From assembly GCA_963775425.1 (NCBI GenBank), contig CAVZJB010000013.1, forward strand, positions 96,001 through 160,000: a stretch of DNA of 64,000 nucleotides, read 5' to 3'. The notes under the pieces were generated by a model. That model was not told where the DNA came from. It did not search any database and saw only the letters and a list, made by a program, of their open reading frames with translations. Origin of the DNA: an uncultured delta proteobacterium (GTDB taxonomy: Bacteria > Myxococcota > UBA727 > VGSZ01). The first letter of the stretch is position 1. Every line of letters begins with the position of its first letter. Positions 52,084 to 58,139 of this stretch are shown one piece after another. A program made the translations under genes and the position numbers.

Positions 52084-52315
52084 GGGCGAGCGGGGAGCGG
52101 TCACGTGTACGGCGAGCGCGTGCGGCTCACGTGCGCGGTCCCGGCCAGGGGACCGCGACCGCTGCCGCGACCGCGAGTCGCACGCGCTGCCGGAGAACCC
52201 GCGTGATGGGCGAGCGGGGAGCGGTCACGTGTACGGCGAGCGCGTGCGGCTCACGTGCGCGGTCACGGCCAGGAGACCGCGACCGCTGCCGTGACCGCGA
52301 GTCGCACGCGCTGCC
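52084..52315. repeat. Two 108-bp hairpin-forming direct repeats (124-bp period), REP/BIME-like
   Basis: Copies at 52084-52191 and 52208-52315; internal arms agcgcgtgcggctc/gagtcgcacgcgct and gcggtcacggc/gccgtgaccgc. Confidence 0.9.
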
Positions 52316-52515
52316 CGTCCACGCCCGCTGTCCGCTCCTGAGCCGGGCTCGTGGCTGACCGGCTCTGCTCTTCGCCGCGCACCTTCCGCGCCAGCGCCCA
52401 AGGGCGATCGACGCGGGCCGAAGATTCGATCCCCTCAGCGACGGAGGTGAAGATCGCCGTCGAGCGATGGAAGCCTGCCGTGAAGCCGTCGACGGAGGAG
52501 GAGCGACTCCTCGCC

Positions 52516-52964: not shown

Positions 52965-53471
52965 CTCGCCCGGCTCGCGGTCGCGGTCGACGAGGGGGAG
53001 AGGCGGATCGTCGATGCCCTCGTCGCCCGCTGCGTCGTCGGCGCGGCGGCCGGCGGTCCAGATGTCGGGGTGGTCGCCGGCGCGTTCGAAATCCTCGGCC
53101 GGCCGGCTCCGCTTCTGGCGCGCGCGTTCAGGCATTCGCATGGCGCGTCCCTCCTCCTCGGACATGTGCATGCTTCACGCCACGCCCACGCACGAGCGAG
53201 GCGGCGGTGCAGGCGACGCGGGTGCCGCCGGCGGCGGTGCCGCGCTTCGCGCGCCCGTCGCACAACGCCGGCGTACGGGACGGCGAAGACGCTCCCCGCG
53301 GCGAGCGAGACCGCGATGCCTTCTGGGGCGTCGCCCGCGCCACCGCGCGTGATCCCGCGTTGCAGGGTGAACAGTGCGTCGTGGCGCAGGCGCCCGGGCG
53401 AGGCGGCGATGCGCCGCAGCCTGCGGCGGGCGCGCGCCGACTGCCGGGATCGTCGAGGACGTATGCACCGC

Positions 53472-53604
53472 GAGCCCGAGCTACGCACCGATGCCCCTGG
53501 CGTCCTCGAGGCGCTTCACGTCCTCCAGCGGTGAGCGCGAACGCGAGCGCGGTCACGGGGCCCACGCCCTTCACACGGAGCAAGCGGGCCGTCTCACGGA
53601 ACTG
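53472..53604 (-). mobile_element. IS110-family transposase fragment
   Basis: ETARLLRVKGVGPVTALAFALT/LEDVKRLEDARGIGA*LGL with a frameshift and a stop. Confidence 0.75.
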
Positions 53605-54226
53605 CCATCAGCTCGACGTCGAGCAGGTGGAAGAGGTTGTTGAACCTCTCGCTTCGGTGCGCTCGAGCTCTTCGTGCGACGCGGAGGCGGGTTTGCGCCG
53701 TGAGCCCGCCGCTGGGTGGGTGCGGACGGTGCCCTCCTCGAGCGCCGCGCTGGCGTCGCGTCCTTCGCTCCGACGGCGTTACCCCGTCCTCATCGGGACT
53801 ACGACGCGATCCGACCTCGCCGTCGCCGTCTGCCTCTCTCGTCTCTTCGACTCGTCGGGCATACTCGTCACCTCGCGGCGAAAAGAGCGGCGGGGATCTC
53901 CCAGGTTGCCGCAGCAGCATCATGTGAAGCGCGATCGGGTCTTCGACCCCGGGTGCCGTCGACGCGCTCGCCATGACGCTCGTCGACGTGTTGCCTTCGG
54001 TGTGGTCGACCACCTCGGCGCAATCCACCAGGAACAATCTTTCGGGGCTCCATCCCATTCATGGCCGAGCAGCCAGCTCGGTCCATTCGACCTCGCTCCC
54101 TTTCTGTCTACGCTTCAACGCCGCCGTTGCCGTCGACGCTGCAAGACTCGCTACGAGACGGTTGGCTATTCCTTACCTTGGCGGGATCCACCCCCGCTTG
54201 TTGCTGCGACCTTGCCTGGTCGATCC
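53600..54226 (-). mobile_element. Truncated group II intron: domains I-III plus the first ~30 codons of the RT/maturase
   Basis: Minus strand shows ...CGACCAGGCAAGGTCGC, TGAAGCGTAGACAG, GAGCCCCGAAA, GAAGGCAA, AACCTGGGAGATCC; DIII-like GTCGGAT..CGTAGT.CCGATGA..GGTAAC..GGAG.GAAGG; then ARAHRSERFNNLFHLLDVEL. Confidence 0.85.
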
Positions 54227-54247
54227 GTCCGTGGTTTGTTGGTGGCC
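54227..54247 (-). other. attC-like site, half only (cut by the group II intron)
   Basis: Minus GGCCACCAAC-AAACCACGGAC, complementary to GTTGGTGGCC at 55074-55083 and similar to the arm at 56113-56130. Confidence 0.7.
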
Positions 54248-54288
54248 GCACGCCGCTACGTCCCGCCGCTGGTGCGTGGCCGAGTGAC

Positions 54289-55050
54289 TCACAGGCGGTG
54301 CCCAACCAGCTTCAGGGTCCGAAGGGCGCCCCCTGGCGTCACATAGATCTTCTCTTCGAATTGCCCCCAAGTCGCACCTTCGCTAACCCACCCGACAACT
54401 GCCGGTCTCCGTCTCGTGGTCAGGTGCGGCCAACCGGTGATCAGGCTGATAACCGGAGCTCCGCTGATGCCGCCGAGCTCGTCACTCGTGCGTTGGGCCT
54501 CAGTGCTGCCCTCCATCTCGTGCGTCGCTGGATTGAGTCTGATCGAGAACTGGTCGGGCTCAACGGTCGTGACTGTTGCAAGACGCTCCGCCCGAGTAAG
54601 CGACAGCTGACGATTGCCAACGATCACTTTCCCGGCCCCCGGAAAACCGAGAAACGCAACGAGTTCGAAGCGCCTCACTGGTTTCGCGACTACCTCGTCA
54701 GTCGAGATGATCTGTGATCCGACGCCCTCGACTTCGTCGCGGTGAATCGCAATGGCGCCGACGTCGGGCTTTTCGCTGAATGAACACGGCCGCGAGTCGT
54801 TTCCCCGGATGATGACGTTTGGAGTCCGCCCTACCTGCAGCGCGGCATTCTTACCGCGGCTCCGAAACTCCGCGAGCACGTGCCCCGCAGTCACGAGCCA
54901 TGCGCTCCCGTCGATGTCAATCAGCGACCCGGTAGCCATTTGAGGTTCCACGCCTGCCGCTGTGATGAGGAGAAGCGGGATCGCCCTAACGTCTAGGTAC
55001 TCAAATGCCCTTGCTTCGGTCTTCTTGTAGTCGGCTAGCGAGAAGGACAT
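54289..55050 (-). CDS. Trypsin-like serine protease (cassette cargo)
   Basis: WLVTAGHV, PDVGAI and GGISGAPV triad motifs; no signal peptide. Confidence 0.8.
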   Translation of the reverse strand: MSFSLADYKKTEARAFEYLDVRAIPLLLITAAGVEPQMATGSLIDIDGSAWLVTAGHVLAEFRSRGKNAALQVGRTPNVIIRGNDSRPCSFSEKPDVGAIAIHRDEVEGVGSQIISTDEVVAKPVRRFELVAFLGFPGAGKVIVGNRQLSLTRAERLATVTTVEPDQFSIRLNPATHEMEGSTEAQRTSDELGGISGAPVISLITGWPHLTTRRRPAVVGWVSEGATWGQFEEKIYVTPGGALRTLKLVGHRL

Positions 55051-55073
55051 CGTCGCAGCATTCCGCTCATCGA

Positions 55074-55148
55074 GGCCACCAACGTTGGGAGTGGCCGACA
55101 GCCGCGCCACGCACCTCCATTTTGGCGCTGCGTCACGACGGAGCGCAA
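55074..55148 (-). other. attC-like site, half only (cut by the ISKra4-like element)
   Basis: Plus CACCAAC-GT-N10-CGACAGCCGCGCC aligns with the left arms of the two intact sites. Confidence 0.65.
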
Positions 55149-56003
55149 GGGTGTGGATCTGACCCTGAGCATCGGCTGACCGATCGATGGCGGGGCGCGA
55201 TCGCGTGAGCGACACAGTGCCATGGCGAAGATCACCCTCGATGTCCCAGACGACGTGGCGGAAGAACTGAAGGCGCTGGAGGCGCGGTTGAAGCGGCTTG
55301 AGGCTGACAAGATCGGCATCGAGGACGCGATCCCCGAAGACGACATCGACGTGGTCACGAAGGGCATCGCGCTCTCCTTGAAGCGGAGGTCGCTTCAATG
55401 CCTCGACATCGACGCCGAGAGAATCCTCGTCGACGGAGAGCCCCACGCCAAGGTCGGCCGGTACGCGGCGACGTACTCTACACGCGGGAAGGGCCGGTCG
55501 CGGTGACGCGGAGCCTGTTCGGCAAGTGCGGCGTACGGAACGGCGCCACCGTTGACACCGTGAGTCTTCGATGTGGCGCGGTCGACGGATGGCTGCCGAA
55601 GACGGCAAGGGCGTTGGCGTTCCTCATGCAGCAGGGGACGTCGCGGGAAGCTGAAGCCTCGTCGCGCGAGCTCGGCGTGTTGCCGTACTCCCGCAGCAGC
55701 TTCGAGCGTGTGGGCCACGACGTCGGACGCCGATACAGCGACGTGCGCTACGACGTCGAGGACGCGCTGATCCGCGGCTACGTCGTGCCGCGTGAGGCTC
55801 GGAGCATCTCCGTCTCGCTCGACCGCGTCGCCGTGCCCTTCGAAGAGCTTCGCACGCGCAGCCCCGGGCGACCGCCGAAGGGTGCGCCGAAGCGGCCGAT
55901 CAATCGCGTGCGGCACATGGTCTACGTCGCCACGGTCACCATTCACGACGGCGACGGCGAAGCGCTCCACACGATCCGCTACGGCCGTGTCCCCGACTAC
56001 GGG
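55149..56003 (+). mobile_element. ISKra4-family-like transposase remnant (frameshifted, 3'-truncated)
   Basis: LDIDAERILVDGEPH...TREGPVAVTRSL...SRSSFERV...SVSLDRV...TIHDGDGEALHTIRYGRVP; ORFs at 55222 and 55398 join near 55480; putative left end GGGTGTG. Confidence 0.7.
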
Positions 56004-56130
56004 AGCCAACGTAGACCATGTGTGGCACCCGCGCCGCACGCCATTGATGATGCCACCGAGCCGAGTGACCCGGAGCCGCACCGCCGAAGGCGGATGCGGC
56101 GGAGTGCCCTGCGCACATGGTTTGTTCGGC
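56004..56130 (-). other. attC-like site (127 bp)
   Basis: Plus AGCCAAC-GT-AGACCATGTG...CACATGGTTT-GTTCGGC imperfect inverted repeat. Confidence 0.8.
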
Positions 56131-56174
56131 GGCGCGGCCCACGAGAGCCGCCGGTGCCATCGCGGTCGCGTCGA

Positions 56175-56566
56175 TCACCTGAGAAGTCCCGCGTCGATGA
56201 CTGCGTCTTTGAACGTCCGGATGAAATCGCTCAGCTCACGGATATCGAACTTCGCCCAATGCACGTCGCCACCGTCGGCCTGTAACGTTGCGGACGCCCA
56301 GGTGAAGACGATGCTTACAGTATCTCGCTGAGTGAGATCGGTAAGTGCTGCGTGACGGCGACTGCCGTCGACTCGCGGGTTGCGAGCGTCTGCAGCTCAT
56401 CGACGACACGGAGCACCTCGGATGGAGCAAGAGCCACGAGCTCGGTATCGACGGGATCCCTACTTATGGTGATTGCGTAGAGATCGTCGTCGGAGTCGAG
56501 GACGTCGTCGAGTTCGACCTCCCAGGGTCCACTTCTGCCGACACCGGCAAGGCCCCGCTCAGTCAT
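56175..56566 (-). CDS. Hypothetical cassette gene, probably frameshifted near 56340
   Basis: ATG at 56566 shortly after the GTT core; first frame stops at 56315, a second frame continues ...VSIVFTWAS...DAVIDAGLLR* to 56175. Confidence 0.55.
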
Positions 56567-56592
56567 ACGTTCGAACCCCGCAATACGTCGCC

Positions 56593-56810
56593 GCCGAACG
56601 TTGCGCACGTGCGGCACCCGCGCCGCACGACGTTTCTACTGCCGCTGCCCCATGCGAGCAACGATGACGTCAAGGCGCGGGTGACCCCGCTGGCAAGTGA
56701 GTAGCTCGCGACGCCGAAGGCGGTCGTCGAGCGTAGTTGCGGTGGCGTGCACCGCCAGGTGCACGTCTCTCTCCGGGCCAGCGGGGCTTTGCGCACGTGC
56801 GTTGTTCGCT
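56593..56810 (-). other. attC-like site (218 bp)
   Basis: Plus GCCGAAC-GT-TGCGCACGTG...CACGTGCGTT-GTTCGCT; shares GGCACCCGCGCCGCACG and CGCCGAAGGCGG with the 127-bp site. Confidence 0.8.
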
Positions 56811-56828
56811 GACCGGGTGACGGCAATG

Positions 56829-57530
56829 CTACGGGATGAAGAGCTTGCCGCCTGAGTCAGAATTGATGAGGCCAAGAACGCATTTTCGGGCGCGGGGATG
56901 GGACTTGGCGAACGATTCAGATTGATCGGCCTTATGTGCGTCCTCGCTGCAGTAGAGCGTCGCTTCACTCAACCCCTCCGCGGCCATCGCCTTGCGAAGC
57001 AAAGCCTCTCGTTGGGCGTTTGGGGTCTTCGCGTTGAACGACTTCACGAGGATCGCGCCGCTCTTTCCGCCCGTCAGCAGCTTCACAGTTTCGAGGACTG
57101 TGTACGACGGAAGCCCGTCGCCGGCCGCAACGGCCTTTTGGGTTTCGTCGATCGCGCCGGGCGGCTTGTAGCCGGGCTTCTCCCATAGTTTCGTTTTCGG
57201 TGTATTGCCTACCGCAGGACGCCAAGCGGTGACCACGTCGTCACCCTGCACGTAGAAATCGACCGCGCCGGACTTCGTTTCAACGATCTGATGCTGGCCG
57301 CCGAACCATGCCGCTGGCTGCTGAGGCTTCTCGGCTACGCCGAACTCGGCTTTCTCGAGCACGAACTTCTGAATCGGGGGAAGGACGGACGTGGCGTCCG
57401 CCGGCGGCGGAGGCGCAGCCTCTGCCGCACGCGCCTTCGTCGCTTCCGCCTGCGATGGTTGCTCGTCATCGGAGCAAGCCACACAAGTCGACATGACGAC
57501 GAGCGCTGCGAGAGCGCGGCTCTGATTCAT
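56829..57530 (-). CDS. Hypothetical lipoprotein (first cassette cargo)
   Basis: MNQSRALAALVVMSTCVAC lipobox; atypical codon usage; stop 18 nt before the attC-like site. Confidence 0.75.
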   Translation of the reverse strand: MNQSRALAALVVMSTCVACSDDEQPSQAEATKARAAEAAPPPPADATSVLPPIQKFVLEKAEFGVAEKPQQPAAWFGGQHQIVETKSGAVDFYVQGDDVVTAWRPAVGNTPKTKLWEKPGYKPPGAIDETQKAVAAGDGLPSYTVLETVKLLTGGKSGAILVKSFNAKTPNAQREALLRKAMAAEGLSEATLYCSEDAHKADQSESFAKSHPRARKCVLGLINSDSGGKLFIP

Positions 57531-57593
57531 CAATGGGAGGCGACGTCCTTCTCCGCGGAGCTTCAGCACTCTTCCTCCAGATTGGCAGCTTCT

Positions 57594-57650
57594 GTCAGCG
57601 AACCTGATTCTCGCCGACGTTCATGTCGGTGAGTCGAACGGATTCTATCA
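57594..57650 (-). promoter_or_regulatory. attI-like head with candidate Pc-type promoter
   Basis: First GTT core lacks an attC arm; direct repeats AGAATCCGTTCG/AGAATCAGGTTCG; TG-A-TAGAAT extended -10 pointing into the array. Confidence 0.5.
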
Positions 57651-57989
57651 GGTCATGGCGATCTCTCGGCTACCGGCGTGGTCTGGTGGTCGAGCTTCAT
57701 CGACGTCGACGAGGGTGATCGTGGACGGGAGGCATTTCGCGTCGCTGAAGGTTTGGCGACGCGCGTCGACGGCGGATGTCACGTGGGGGAGCGCGCGCCG
57801 CAGGCCGGCGGTGGAGGCTCCCGGAGGCGCCACCGCCGAGCGCCCCCGAGGGTGCTCGCTCCGTGAGTCCCGGCGGCGCCGGGGTGGCGCGGAGGGAGCC
57901 GGAGCCGCTGGCCAAGGCGTGCGCGGACAGTGGAGCGGAGGGCGACGACGAGGCCGTGGGTGTTTCGTGGAGGAGCGCCGCCGGCCGGG

Positions 57990-58106
57990 ACGGCGGCGAG
58001 CGGCTCACCCCGAAGGGGCCCTTCCGCAGGCGCCCTCGCGGCGGTGCTCGAAGTGAGGCGGGGAGCGCCGAGGACCGGGCCCCGAGGGGTGAGCCGTTCG
58101 CCGCCG
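57990..58106. repeat. Long intergenic inverted repeat
   Basis: cggcggcgagcggctcaccccgaaggggccc ... gggccccgaggggtgagccgttcgccgccg. Confidence 0.75.
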
Positions 58107-58139
58107 GACCAGGCGGCGCGGTCCATCCCATGCGGGAAA

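Follow-up and report, generated by a model that had tools for sequence, protein, structure and literature searches.

The closest described counterparts of the locus analysed here are the sedentary chromosomal integrons and the clusters of attC sites that lack an integron integrase (CALINs), in which tandem, mostly co-oriented single-gene cassettes of lower G+C content, each with its own GTT.../...AAC repeat, are joined by sites that fold as imperfect palindromes and conserve structure above sequence. The core of an integron site comprises 7 nt; in classical attC sites the L box has extrahelical bases, and a central spacer of ~5 nt is unpaired. Integron integrases (IntI) are both defined and searched for by an additional domain, the gain of which is presented as the step that enabled recombination of folded single strands. 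In the parts of this literature on which we draw, Ghaly et al. 2022 treat the additional domain as defining for IntI and as necessary for recombination (PMC9668308), and the region around patch III that it represents is the basis of the intI_Cterm profile of IntegronFinder (PMC9668308, PMC4889954); a study by Messier and Roy, listed by title in PMC9668308, concerns the need for this domain in integrases that act on folded sites; and Escudero et al. 2020 regard the gain of the I2 helix as the innovation (PMC7790495). For Cury et al. 2016, recombinases without the IntI-specific region were no more than a sporadic finding near attC sites, which numbered fewer than three, and did not qualify as IntI (PMC4889954); Smyshlyaev et al. 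2021 describe the insertion as not fully conserved in the integron-like subgroup (PMC8138268). Here we analyse a 64-kb stretch of contig C13 of an uncultured delta proteobacterium (the window; coordinates without a contig label are positions of this window, G000 is the source genome, and G028, G029, G030 and G035 are related genomes), in which an earlier note made from the sequence alone had proposed an integron-like cassette array. We consider that the region is probably an orphan array of an integron-like gene-cassette system, which is served by a non-canonical tyrosine recombinase.

Read on the minus strand, the array comprises three intact cassettes and one remnant after a first site, and it ends in a truncated group II intron; it is an orphan. 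Its features are given below, where ORF stands for open reading frame and R1 for a covariance model whose training set was the four complete sites of this genome.

57777..58136, minus strand: copy of a ~350-bp dispersed repeat, immediately upstream of the first site
57601..57670, minus strand: first site, putatively of the attI type, with the end ...GAGAATCAG/GTT; the recombinase gene is not adjacent
56804..57603, minus strand: cassette 1, 800 bp, one ORF; ends GTTCGCTGAC (57603-57594) and GTCAGCGAAC (56813-56804)
56597..56813, minus strand: attC-like site A1, 217 nt, AAC-AA-CGCACGTGCG ... CGCACGTGCG-CAAC-GTT; R1 match at 56593-56813, 111 bits (training sequence)
56124..56599, minus strand: cassette 2, 476 bp, small ORF within 56315-56617; ends GTTCGGCGGCG (56599-56589) and CGCCGCCGAAC (56134-56124)
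56006..56134, minus strand: attC-like site A2, 129 nt, AAC-AA-ACCATGTG ... CACATGGT-CTAC-GTT; R1 match at 56004-56133, 121.7 bits (training sequence)
55149..56008, minus strand: broken fourth unit with start GTTGGCTCCC and no matching AAC end; plus-strand open frames at 55222-55506 and 55398-56285
55081..55148, minus strand: attC-like 3' half-site, ...GGCCACTCC-CAAC-GTT, 5' half missing; weak R1 match at 55077-55191, 18.1 bits, E 0.029
54238..55083, minus strand: cassette 3, 846 bp, one ORF (54289-55050); ends GTTGGTGGCC (55083-55074) and GGCCACCAAC (54247-54238)
54226..54247, minus strand: attC-like 5' half-site, GGCCACCAAC-AA-ACCACGGACG, cut off by the intron, with the layout of the intron-bearing sites at C13:295k and on contig C3 of G028
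53604..54225, minus strand: truncated group II intron, 5' part (match to Rfam RF02005 with 137.3 bits at 54189-53937)
53471..53605, minus strand: fragment of an IS110-family transposase gene, 88% to C13:294421-294554

The three repeat pairs listed in the earlier note are all present at the positions that it gave, perfect within each unit (3/3) and different between units, with the start and end of unit 2 complementary over 11 nt. Its description of the units as lower in G+C is likewise borne out, the content being 0.60-0.70 across 53800-57600 and 0.72-0.77 in the flanks on both sides. The number of units has to be amended: between units 2 and 3, at 56008-55149, lies the fourth, broken unit. 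Inverted repeats of the GTT...AAC type that are perfect over at least 10 nt and spaced 300-1200 nt apart occur 163 times in the 8.26-Mb genome, and from this count 0.07 such pairs would be expected in 3.4 kb, as against the three observed. Under looser criteria (at least 9 nt, 120-4500 nt apart) there are 3,736 GTT...AAC pairs genome-wide, chaining by chance. Because loosely spaced pairs are so common in this genome, the repeats alone count for little, and the case is carried by the conserved sites between the repeats and by the results obtained in relatives. A model-free detector of chained GTT...AAC units was dropped, as it returned chance chains across the whole genome.

The spacers that follow units 1 and 2 (56813-56597 and 56134-56006) are related to each other and share one architecture, in which 2 nt separate the AAC of the unit end from a 10-nt arm, and the complementary arm, beyond a variable middle, is separated by 4 nt from the GTT of the next unit. 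On folding, both strands pair the AAC/GTT ends and form a 10-bp stem, and the internal loop in the window sites measures 2 x 4 nt. The sequence of the arms varies from site to site while their complementarity is kept: in the four complete sites of this genome 6 of the 10 stem pairs have changed on both sides, and 96.2% of the cells in the alignment are paired, as opposed to 19-38% when the partner is slid by 1-3 columns. When 26 sites from five genomes are considered, compensatory changes are found in 7 of the 10 stem pairs, 98.5% of the cells are paired (22-37% when slid), and the stem shows no conserved single-base bulge. The length of the sites ranges overall from 115 to 220 nt. Rfam yielded no match in the window sites, and the possibility that the spacers represent domains V and VI of an intron was set aside, no such Rfam match being found in them. 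Of the cruder searches, a 16-nt motif and half-site patterns both proved too unspecific in this G+C-rich genome for mapping the sites, though they pointed to the second array described below, and a simple AAC/stem/GTT scanner was dropped after it gave 301 matches genome-wide.

An A/T-rich box (e.g. TAGAAT, TACAAT, CAGAAT, CACAAT or CAAAAT) lies ~35-45 nt before the terminal GTT in the eight sites of this genome that were inspected (in the window and in the loci L009 and L010 described below), in surroundings of 70% G+C. We had considered a promoter in each site, represented by this TAnAAT-like box ~40 nt before GTT, and abandoned the idea, as the sigma-70 scan gave it no support (0 matches). 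It may instead represent a different type of promoter or an element bound by protein.

Comparison of the window with the rest of its genome by BLAST revealed that the short stretches immediately upstream of units 1 and 3 have further copies at C13:286-288 kb and C8:407.7 kb, and that the homology ends at GTT. The cassette model predicts that each unit carries its own repeat at its far end, and this prediction held at the second C13 array, where the ends of one unit are GTTGGGCGG ... CCGCCCAAC, those of another are GTTGCAC ... GTGCAAC (extending to ~18/20 by reading), and the repeat of a third agrees at 8/9, with the same site motif after each unit. The first sites of the two arrays (57601-57670 in the window and C13:286027-286096) are 78.9% identical over 71 columns, and the 3' half-site at 55081-55148 is 81% identical to C8:407654-407723 and 77% identical to C13:287881-287948; in both cases the homology stops at GTT. 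Thus, copies in this genome diverge within or next to the invariant AAC/GTT. The earlier note had regarded opening at G/TT as established; as far as the sequence can tell, what is fixed is a homology break at AAC/GTT and not an exact G/TT cut. In its own genome the R1 model finds only the four training sites and one remnant, at C8:407605-407725.

The cargo of the second array includes a ParA-like ATPase with a HEPN protein, an IS91-family transposase (NF033538, 386.8 bits) and a DUF3644 protein, which matches the candidate defence family PDC-S19 of PADLOC with 213.9 bits. The cassette with the IS91-family gene lies between the sites B1 and B2 on C13, and a truncated copy of it (743 bp, 99.3% identical) is found at C11:878748-879490, where the homology begins at the GTT of the site beside the recombinase gene discussed below. 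The presence of one cassette in two contexts of the same genome is evidence of mobility, as far as it can be read from such copies. This IS91-family Y2 transposase gene occupies L009 4945-6457, with the ends GTTGCAC.../...GTGCAAC and an inverted repeat of ~18/20 nt by reading. In the second array, the AAC of the third site directly precedes the start of an IS110-family gene, which an IS66 element splits.

A further locus, L010 (C8:406374-407723), is a remnant of the same system. Its small ORF is rich in Cys, looks secreted and has a tail that reads GEGEGE. The locus also contains a second fragment of a group II intron (RF02005, 96.2 bits), the 5' end of which is GTGCG and which is followed by a 3' half-site. 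It adjoins the same block of ORFs as window 55149-55569, and window 55569-55149 is 88% identical to C8:405955-406373.

The dispersed ~350-bp repeat, ending ...GGGAGCCTCCGCCGCCGGCCTGCGGCGCGCGCTCCC, directly precedes the first site of both C13 arrays (the second copy is C13:285617-285977). The copies at C13:285621-285977 and C13:154136-153777 (window 58136-57777) are 73% identical over 370 columns, further matches are found on C1, C18 (11 matches), C7, C9, C8, C2 and C11, and Rfam gave no match for the repeat in the window.

Among 38 genomes of the order (including G000; the assemblies are incomplete, with 59-100% completeness), R1 sites are present in seven, G000 counted, with 26 sites in G028. 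In the arrays that were fetched, 13 of 19 adjacent start/end pairs follow the cassette rule (a perfect complement of at least 8 nt), compared to 9 of 342 mismatched pairs, and several of these nine involve loci of G028 and G029 whose start or end sequences are identical. A stretch of 1706 bp that G028 and G029 share at 88% corresponds to one 1652-bp cassette with ~27 nt on each side, and the upstream units of the two arrays differ in length; this common cassette is again evidence of mobility, deduced from comparison of the two loci. Of the checks suggested by the earlier note, the one by covariance model has in this way returned the second array on the same contig and sites in 7 of the 38 genomes.

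In G028, contigs C11 and C3 end and contig C20 begins at a cassette site or within ~300 nt of one, and contig C2 ends ~300 nt past its last site. The arrays of this genome may represent parts of a single larger one that, if joined, would comprise at least 20 cassettes.

The statement of the earlier note that the window contains no integrase is correct, the first site at 57601-57670 being without an adjoining recombinase gene. The search for an intI-like recombinase elsewhere in the genome, which it recommended, had a divided outcome: there is a candidate on contig C11, although with a disrupted frame, and no match in this genome reaches the integron-integrase cut-off. The C11 gene diverges from a site ending ...CCCAGAATCAC/GTT, the adjoining site being of the first-site type ...AGAATCAC/GTT, and the part encoding the C-terminal domain is in a frame other than that of the catalytic domain, which reflects either a frameshift or a sequence error. 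Orthologues are found as single copies in 6 of the 10 other genomes of the family. In G028 the sites lie at C20:280-1692 on the minus strand and the recombinase gene at C20:3103-4080 on the plus strand, in G030 a site lies at C192:45-199 (minus) and the gene at C192:1901-2896 (plus), both arrangements being divergent, and in G035 a divergent site lies ~1 kb from the recombinase gene. In both G028 and G030 the array begins a few hundred bp upstream of the recombinase gene. From the end repeat of the first cassette its start could be predicted, and a search located this start, over 12 nt in G028 and 10 nt in G030, in the interval that separates the recombinase gene from the first site. The sequence just before GTT is A/T-rich at the junctions of G028, G030 and C11 and in the first sites of both C13 arrays, so that the end of the window first site is of the type that adjoins the recombinase in C11, G028 and G030. 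Within the family, five genomes contain both the recombinase and the sites, one the recombinase only, none the sites only and four neither, counts that do not amount to a statistical test because the genomes are kin.

A search for related loci gave 111 recombinase relatives, of which 80 were kept; the full-length ones come mostly from records of Planctomycetota and Myxococcota. With a broader site model (R2), sites were detected in 19 of the 64 recombinase loci searched, including loci of Planctomycetota, in which the sites are mostly downstream of the recombinase gene and co-oriented with it, and sometimes upstream and divergent.

The recombinase comprises a Phage_integrase domain (PF00589, 129.2 bits) and a SAM-like domain, and the putative catalytic residues R, K, H, R, H and Y, which we assigned ourselves by reading the invariant columns, are invariant in 15 sequences. 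Its best profile is TIGR02249 (integron integrase), with a match that is split in two and scores 184.5-197.5 bits against a cut-off of 265; the cut-off of NF011946 (435) is also missed, and so are those of the Xer families (XerA 178.6-211.7 against 220, XerC 152-169 against 335, XerD 148-177 against 330). In a fold search the integron integrase VchIntIA (2a3v) came out on top (E 3.5e-15), ahead of XerA, and residues 174-230 of 2a3v have only 18 counterparts in the recombinase. The comparison with IntI1 gives the same picture, with a core that is 34% identical and ~40 residues of the additional domain absent. The homologues, of 430-480 residues, possess conserved N- and C-terminal extensions, and the catalytic Y is followed by a domain of ~100 residues predicted to fold into four strands and then helices (predicted local distance difference test, pLDDT, ~80). 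Since the additional domain is absent and the scores are under the cut-offs, the protein is not an IntI in the defining sense, and the label 'IntI-type' used in the earlier note has to be qualified.

In a small tree the family forms one clade (Shimodaira-Hasegawa-like approximate likelihood ratio test, SH-aLRT, 97) and is placed on the side of IntI1, together with other insertion-less recombinases and apart from XerC and XerD of E. coli (SH-aLRT 94). This placement is tentative, because the tree includes only one, long-branched IntI: none of the more distant recombinases tried as canonical IntI references reaches the IntI cut-off, which leaves IntI1 as the sole representative. Insertion-less IntI-like recombinases from Bacteroidota (L110, L113 and L116) and Uhrbacteria (L115, L120 and L121) group with IntI1 in this tree; the frames in the three Bacteroidota records have ~600 residues, with the recombinase in the C-terminal half.

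With the sedentary chromosomal integrons and CALINs the system shares the tandem, mostly co-oriented single-gene cassettes of lower G+C, the own repeat of each cassette (13/19 versus 9/342), the folded imperfect-palindrome sites with structure conserved above sequence, the recurrence of one cassette in different contexts and the distinct first site by a divergent tyrosine recombinase gene, the last feature being found in G028, G030 and on C11 (there frameshifted) and not in the window. The cargo includes at least one match to a candidate anti-phage defence family (PDC-S19). Like a CALIN, the window array lacks an adjoining integrase gene, and our own model gives two complete sites and two half-sites. 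On the other hand, the end repeats measure 9-12 nt, as opposed to the 7-nt core of integrons, and the sites are long, their stem lacks conserved single-base bulges (26 sites), and an internal loop of 2 x 4 nt is found in those of the window. With IntI (VchIntIA and IntI1) the recombinase shares the best profile, the best fold, the putative catalytic residues and the side of the tree; it differs in the missing additional domain and the extra domain of ~100 residues after the tyrosine. With XerC, XerD and XerA it shares the simple build of a tyrosine recombinase with neither an arm-binding domain nor the IntI insertion, and a Xer enzyme can act on a folded single-stranded site, as in the integration of the CTX phage by XerCD; unlike them, it belongs to a separate clade, bears additional domains at its termini and goes with arrays, not with a single dif site.

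The chemistry, the strand used, the position of the cut and the role of the C-terminal domain are inferred. A cassette would, as in integrons, take the form of a circle, and pairing of its two repeat halves would give a hairpin its base when the DNA is single-stranded or extruded; the recombinase would cut within or next to the invariant GTT; and the cassette would be joined either to the A/T-rich first site (integration) or to the site of another cassette (excision and shuffling). The asymmetric 2 x 4 nt internal loop may mark the reactive strand and take the place of the extrahelical bases of classical attC sites, and the conserved C-terminal domain may substitute for the missing IntI insertion. 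We would give about an even chance to the wider proposal that Myxococcota and Planctomycetota possess a separate, widespread lineage of integron-like platforms, which recombines hairpins without I2 or the additional domain, possibly by means of the C-terminal domain and the asymmetric loop. In the literature we found no description of arrays with insertion-less recombinases in these phyla, in a survey that covered few subscription journals and no supplements. If the proposal is true, the additional domain is no prerequisite for cassette capture by single-strand recombination, the lineage is either an ancestral grade or else a solution reached in parallel, and its platforms would escape the integron finders now in use. 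The conserved insertion-less family beside classic cassette arrays points to gene-capture platforms for which present tools would offer no better label than orphan attC clusters. Cassette-borne gene exchange would then also extend further than known, to soil and aquatic bacteria with large genomes, and the system offers a concrete pair of enzyme and site with which the need for the additional domain can be tested.

Several observations weigh against a cassette system of this kind. No recombination events have been observed, and the recombinase lacks a domain that has been reported as necessary for integrases acting on folded sites. The link between recombinase and sites consists of adjacency and co-occurrence in related, non-independent genomes; the detection of sites in 19 of 64 loci leaves many without them, although many loci are short and absence from them says little; and in Planctomycetota the cassette-specific signal is weak, because the end repeats are only 6-9 nt long and near to the shared consensus. 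Among the 19 units examined in relatives, 6 fail the 8-nt rule, some of them owing to site ends that we judge misplaced; the 26-site alignment, having been fitted to the model, favours the structure; and the sigma-70 scan of the window gave 0 promoter matches for the conserved A/T-rich box.

The likeliest alternative is an ordinary integron remnant, i.e. a CALIN, whose arrays would have been built by a canonical IntI that has since been lost or is missing from the assemblies, with the insertion-less recombinase as a bystander or otherwise employed. CALINs are common, and in the parts of the literature consulted the loss or rearrangement of intI is a recognised way in which they originate (PMC8618304, PMC4889954); moreover, the genomes that we compared are incomplete. 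We nonetheless regard this explanation as unlikely: at E <= 1e-40 TIGR02249 has no match in any of the 38 genomes of the order (a search in which the controls were silent too), the insertion-less recombinase adjoins arrays in G028, G030, G035 and many loci of Planctomycetota, the junction of the first cassette falls between its gene and the first site, and its presence in the family coincides with that of the sites. IS91 elements insert next to GAAC/CAAG, and it may be asked whether the boundaries are simply the ends of IS91-family rolling-circle elements (with a Y2 HUH transposase) or products of group II intron retrohoming, given that an IS91-family transposase gene is the cargo of one cassette in the second array, that a truncated copy of it lies beside the C11 recombinase gene, and that a group II intron resides in three of the sites. 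This seems very improbable to us, as neither process accounts for inverted repeats specific to each unit. The intron interrupts the sites at a fixed internal position and does not form their ends, the IS91-family gene is present in only one distinct cassette among annotated ORFs (two copies, both in this genome), no Y2/IS91 gene was found beside the recombinase orthologues in the eight other loci examined, and contig C20 of G028, as far as it was examined, has sites with neither an IS91-family gene nor an intron. Finally, one could ascribe everything to chance inverted repeats in G+C-rich DNA, of which the 3,736 pairs that chain at random are a reminder. We attach next to no probability to this explanation, which is already refuted by the three pairs of at least 10 nt where 0.07 were expected, by the conserved, covarying site between units, by the test of own against other repeats (13/19 versus 9/342) and by the predictions that held in the second array and in the first cassettes of G028 and G030.

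The core of the interpretation put forward in the earlier note is accordingly supported by the family of sites, their covariation, the comparison of own with other repeats and the existence of a recombinase elsewhere in the genome; the IntI-type label and the exact G/TT cut have to be qualified. Here the system looks like a fossil rather than like a working capture system, to judge from its sequence, because the one recombinase gene, on C11, is frameshifted, the first site in the window is without a recombinase, and the array is broken by the intron and by gene fragments.

The intron was inserted 12 nt after AAC, on the strand of the cassette ORFs, and the frame of the intron-encoded protein is cut off. 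It occupies one fixed position in three sites, namely in the window, at C13:295k and on contig C3 of G028; the last carries a full-length copy with matches to RF02005 and RF00029, to which window 54242-53604 is 89.7% identical over 643 columns. We also considered whether the end repeat of unit 3 belongs to the intron's 5' end (GTGCG at 54252), and rejected this since the comparison of the three copies places the 5' end at 54225. IS110-family elements inside cassette sites resemble those of the IS1111-attC group. C13:294421-294554, the counterpart of the IS110 fragment, lies inside an ORF that matches Transposase_20 and DEDD_Tnp_IS110, and the fragment itself (53471-53605) has no Pfam match. 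Group IIC-attC introns likewise reside inside cassette sites; their insertion is into the attC bottom strand, and they face the opposite way to the cassette genes (PMC3001079), whereas the intron described here (RF02005) is on the ORF strand in all three locations.

As to the cargo of the window array, the ORF of cassette 1 extends over 56829-57569 from a GTG codon (with an ATG at 57530, read from the sequence) and has a hydrophobic N-terminus, and it has no match in Pfam, NCBIfam or PADLOC, so that the designation 'lipoprotein' in the earlier note is without a family match. The ORF of cassette 2 has no match in these three databases either. For the product of cassette 3, which had been called a protease, there is a weak trypsin-like peptidase match (Pfam Trypsin_2, E 0.0018), and its score of 19.5 bits is under the cut-off of 27.6. 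The plus-strand frames of the broken unit have no Pfam or NCBIfam match, and a tentative label of 'ISKra4-like transposase' for the plus-strand ORFs at 55222-56285, which neither database supports, was withdrawn. Further along the window, at 52090-52330 on the minus strand, reading of the sequence reveals a stretch of ~120 bp present twice in tandem (...cagcgcgtgcgactcgcggtc...ccgctcgccc), between an apparent truncated gene fragment and the next minus-strand ORF.

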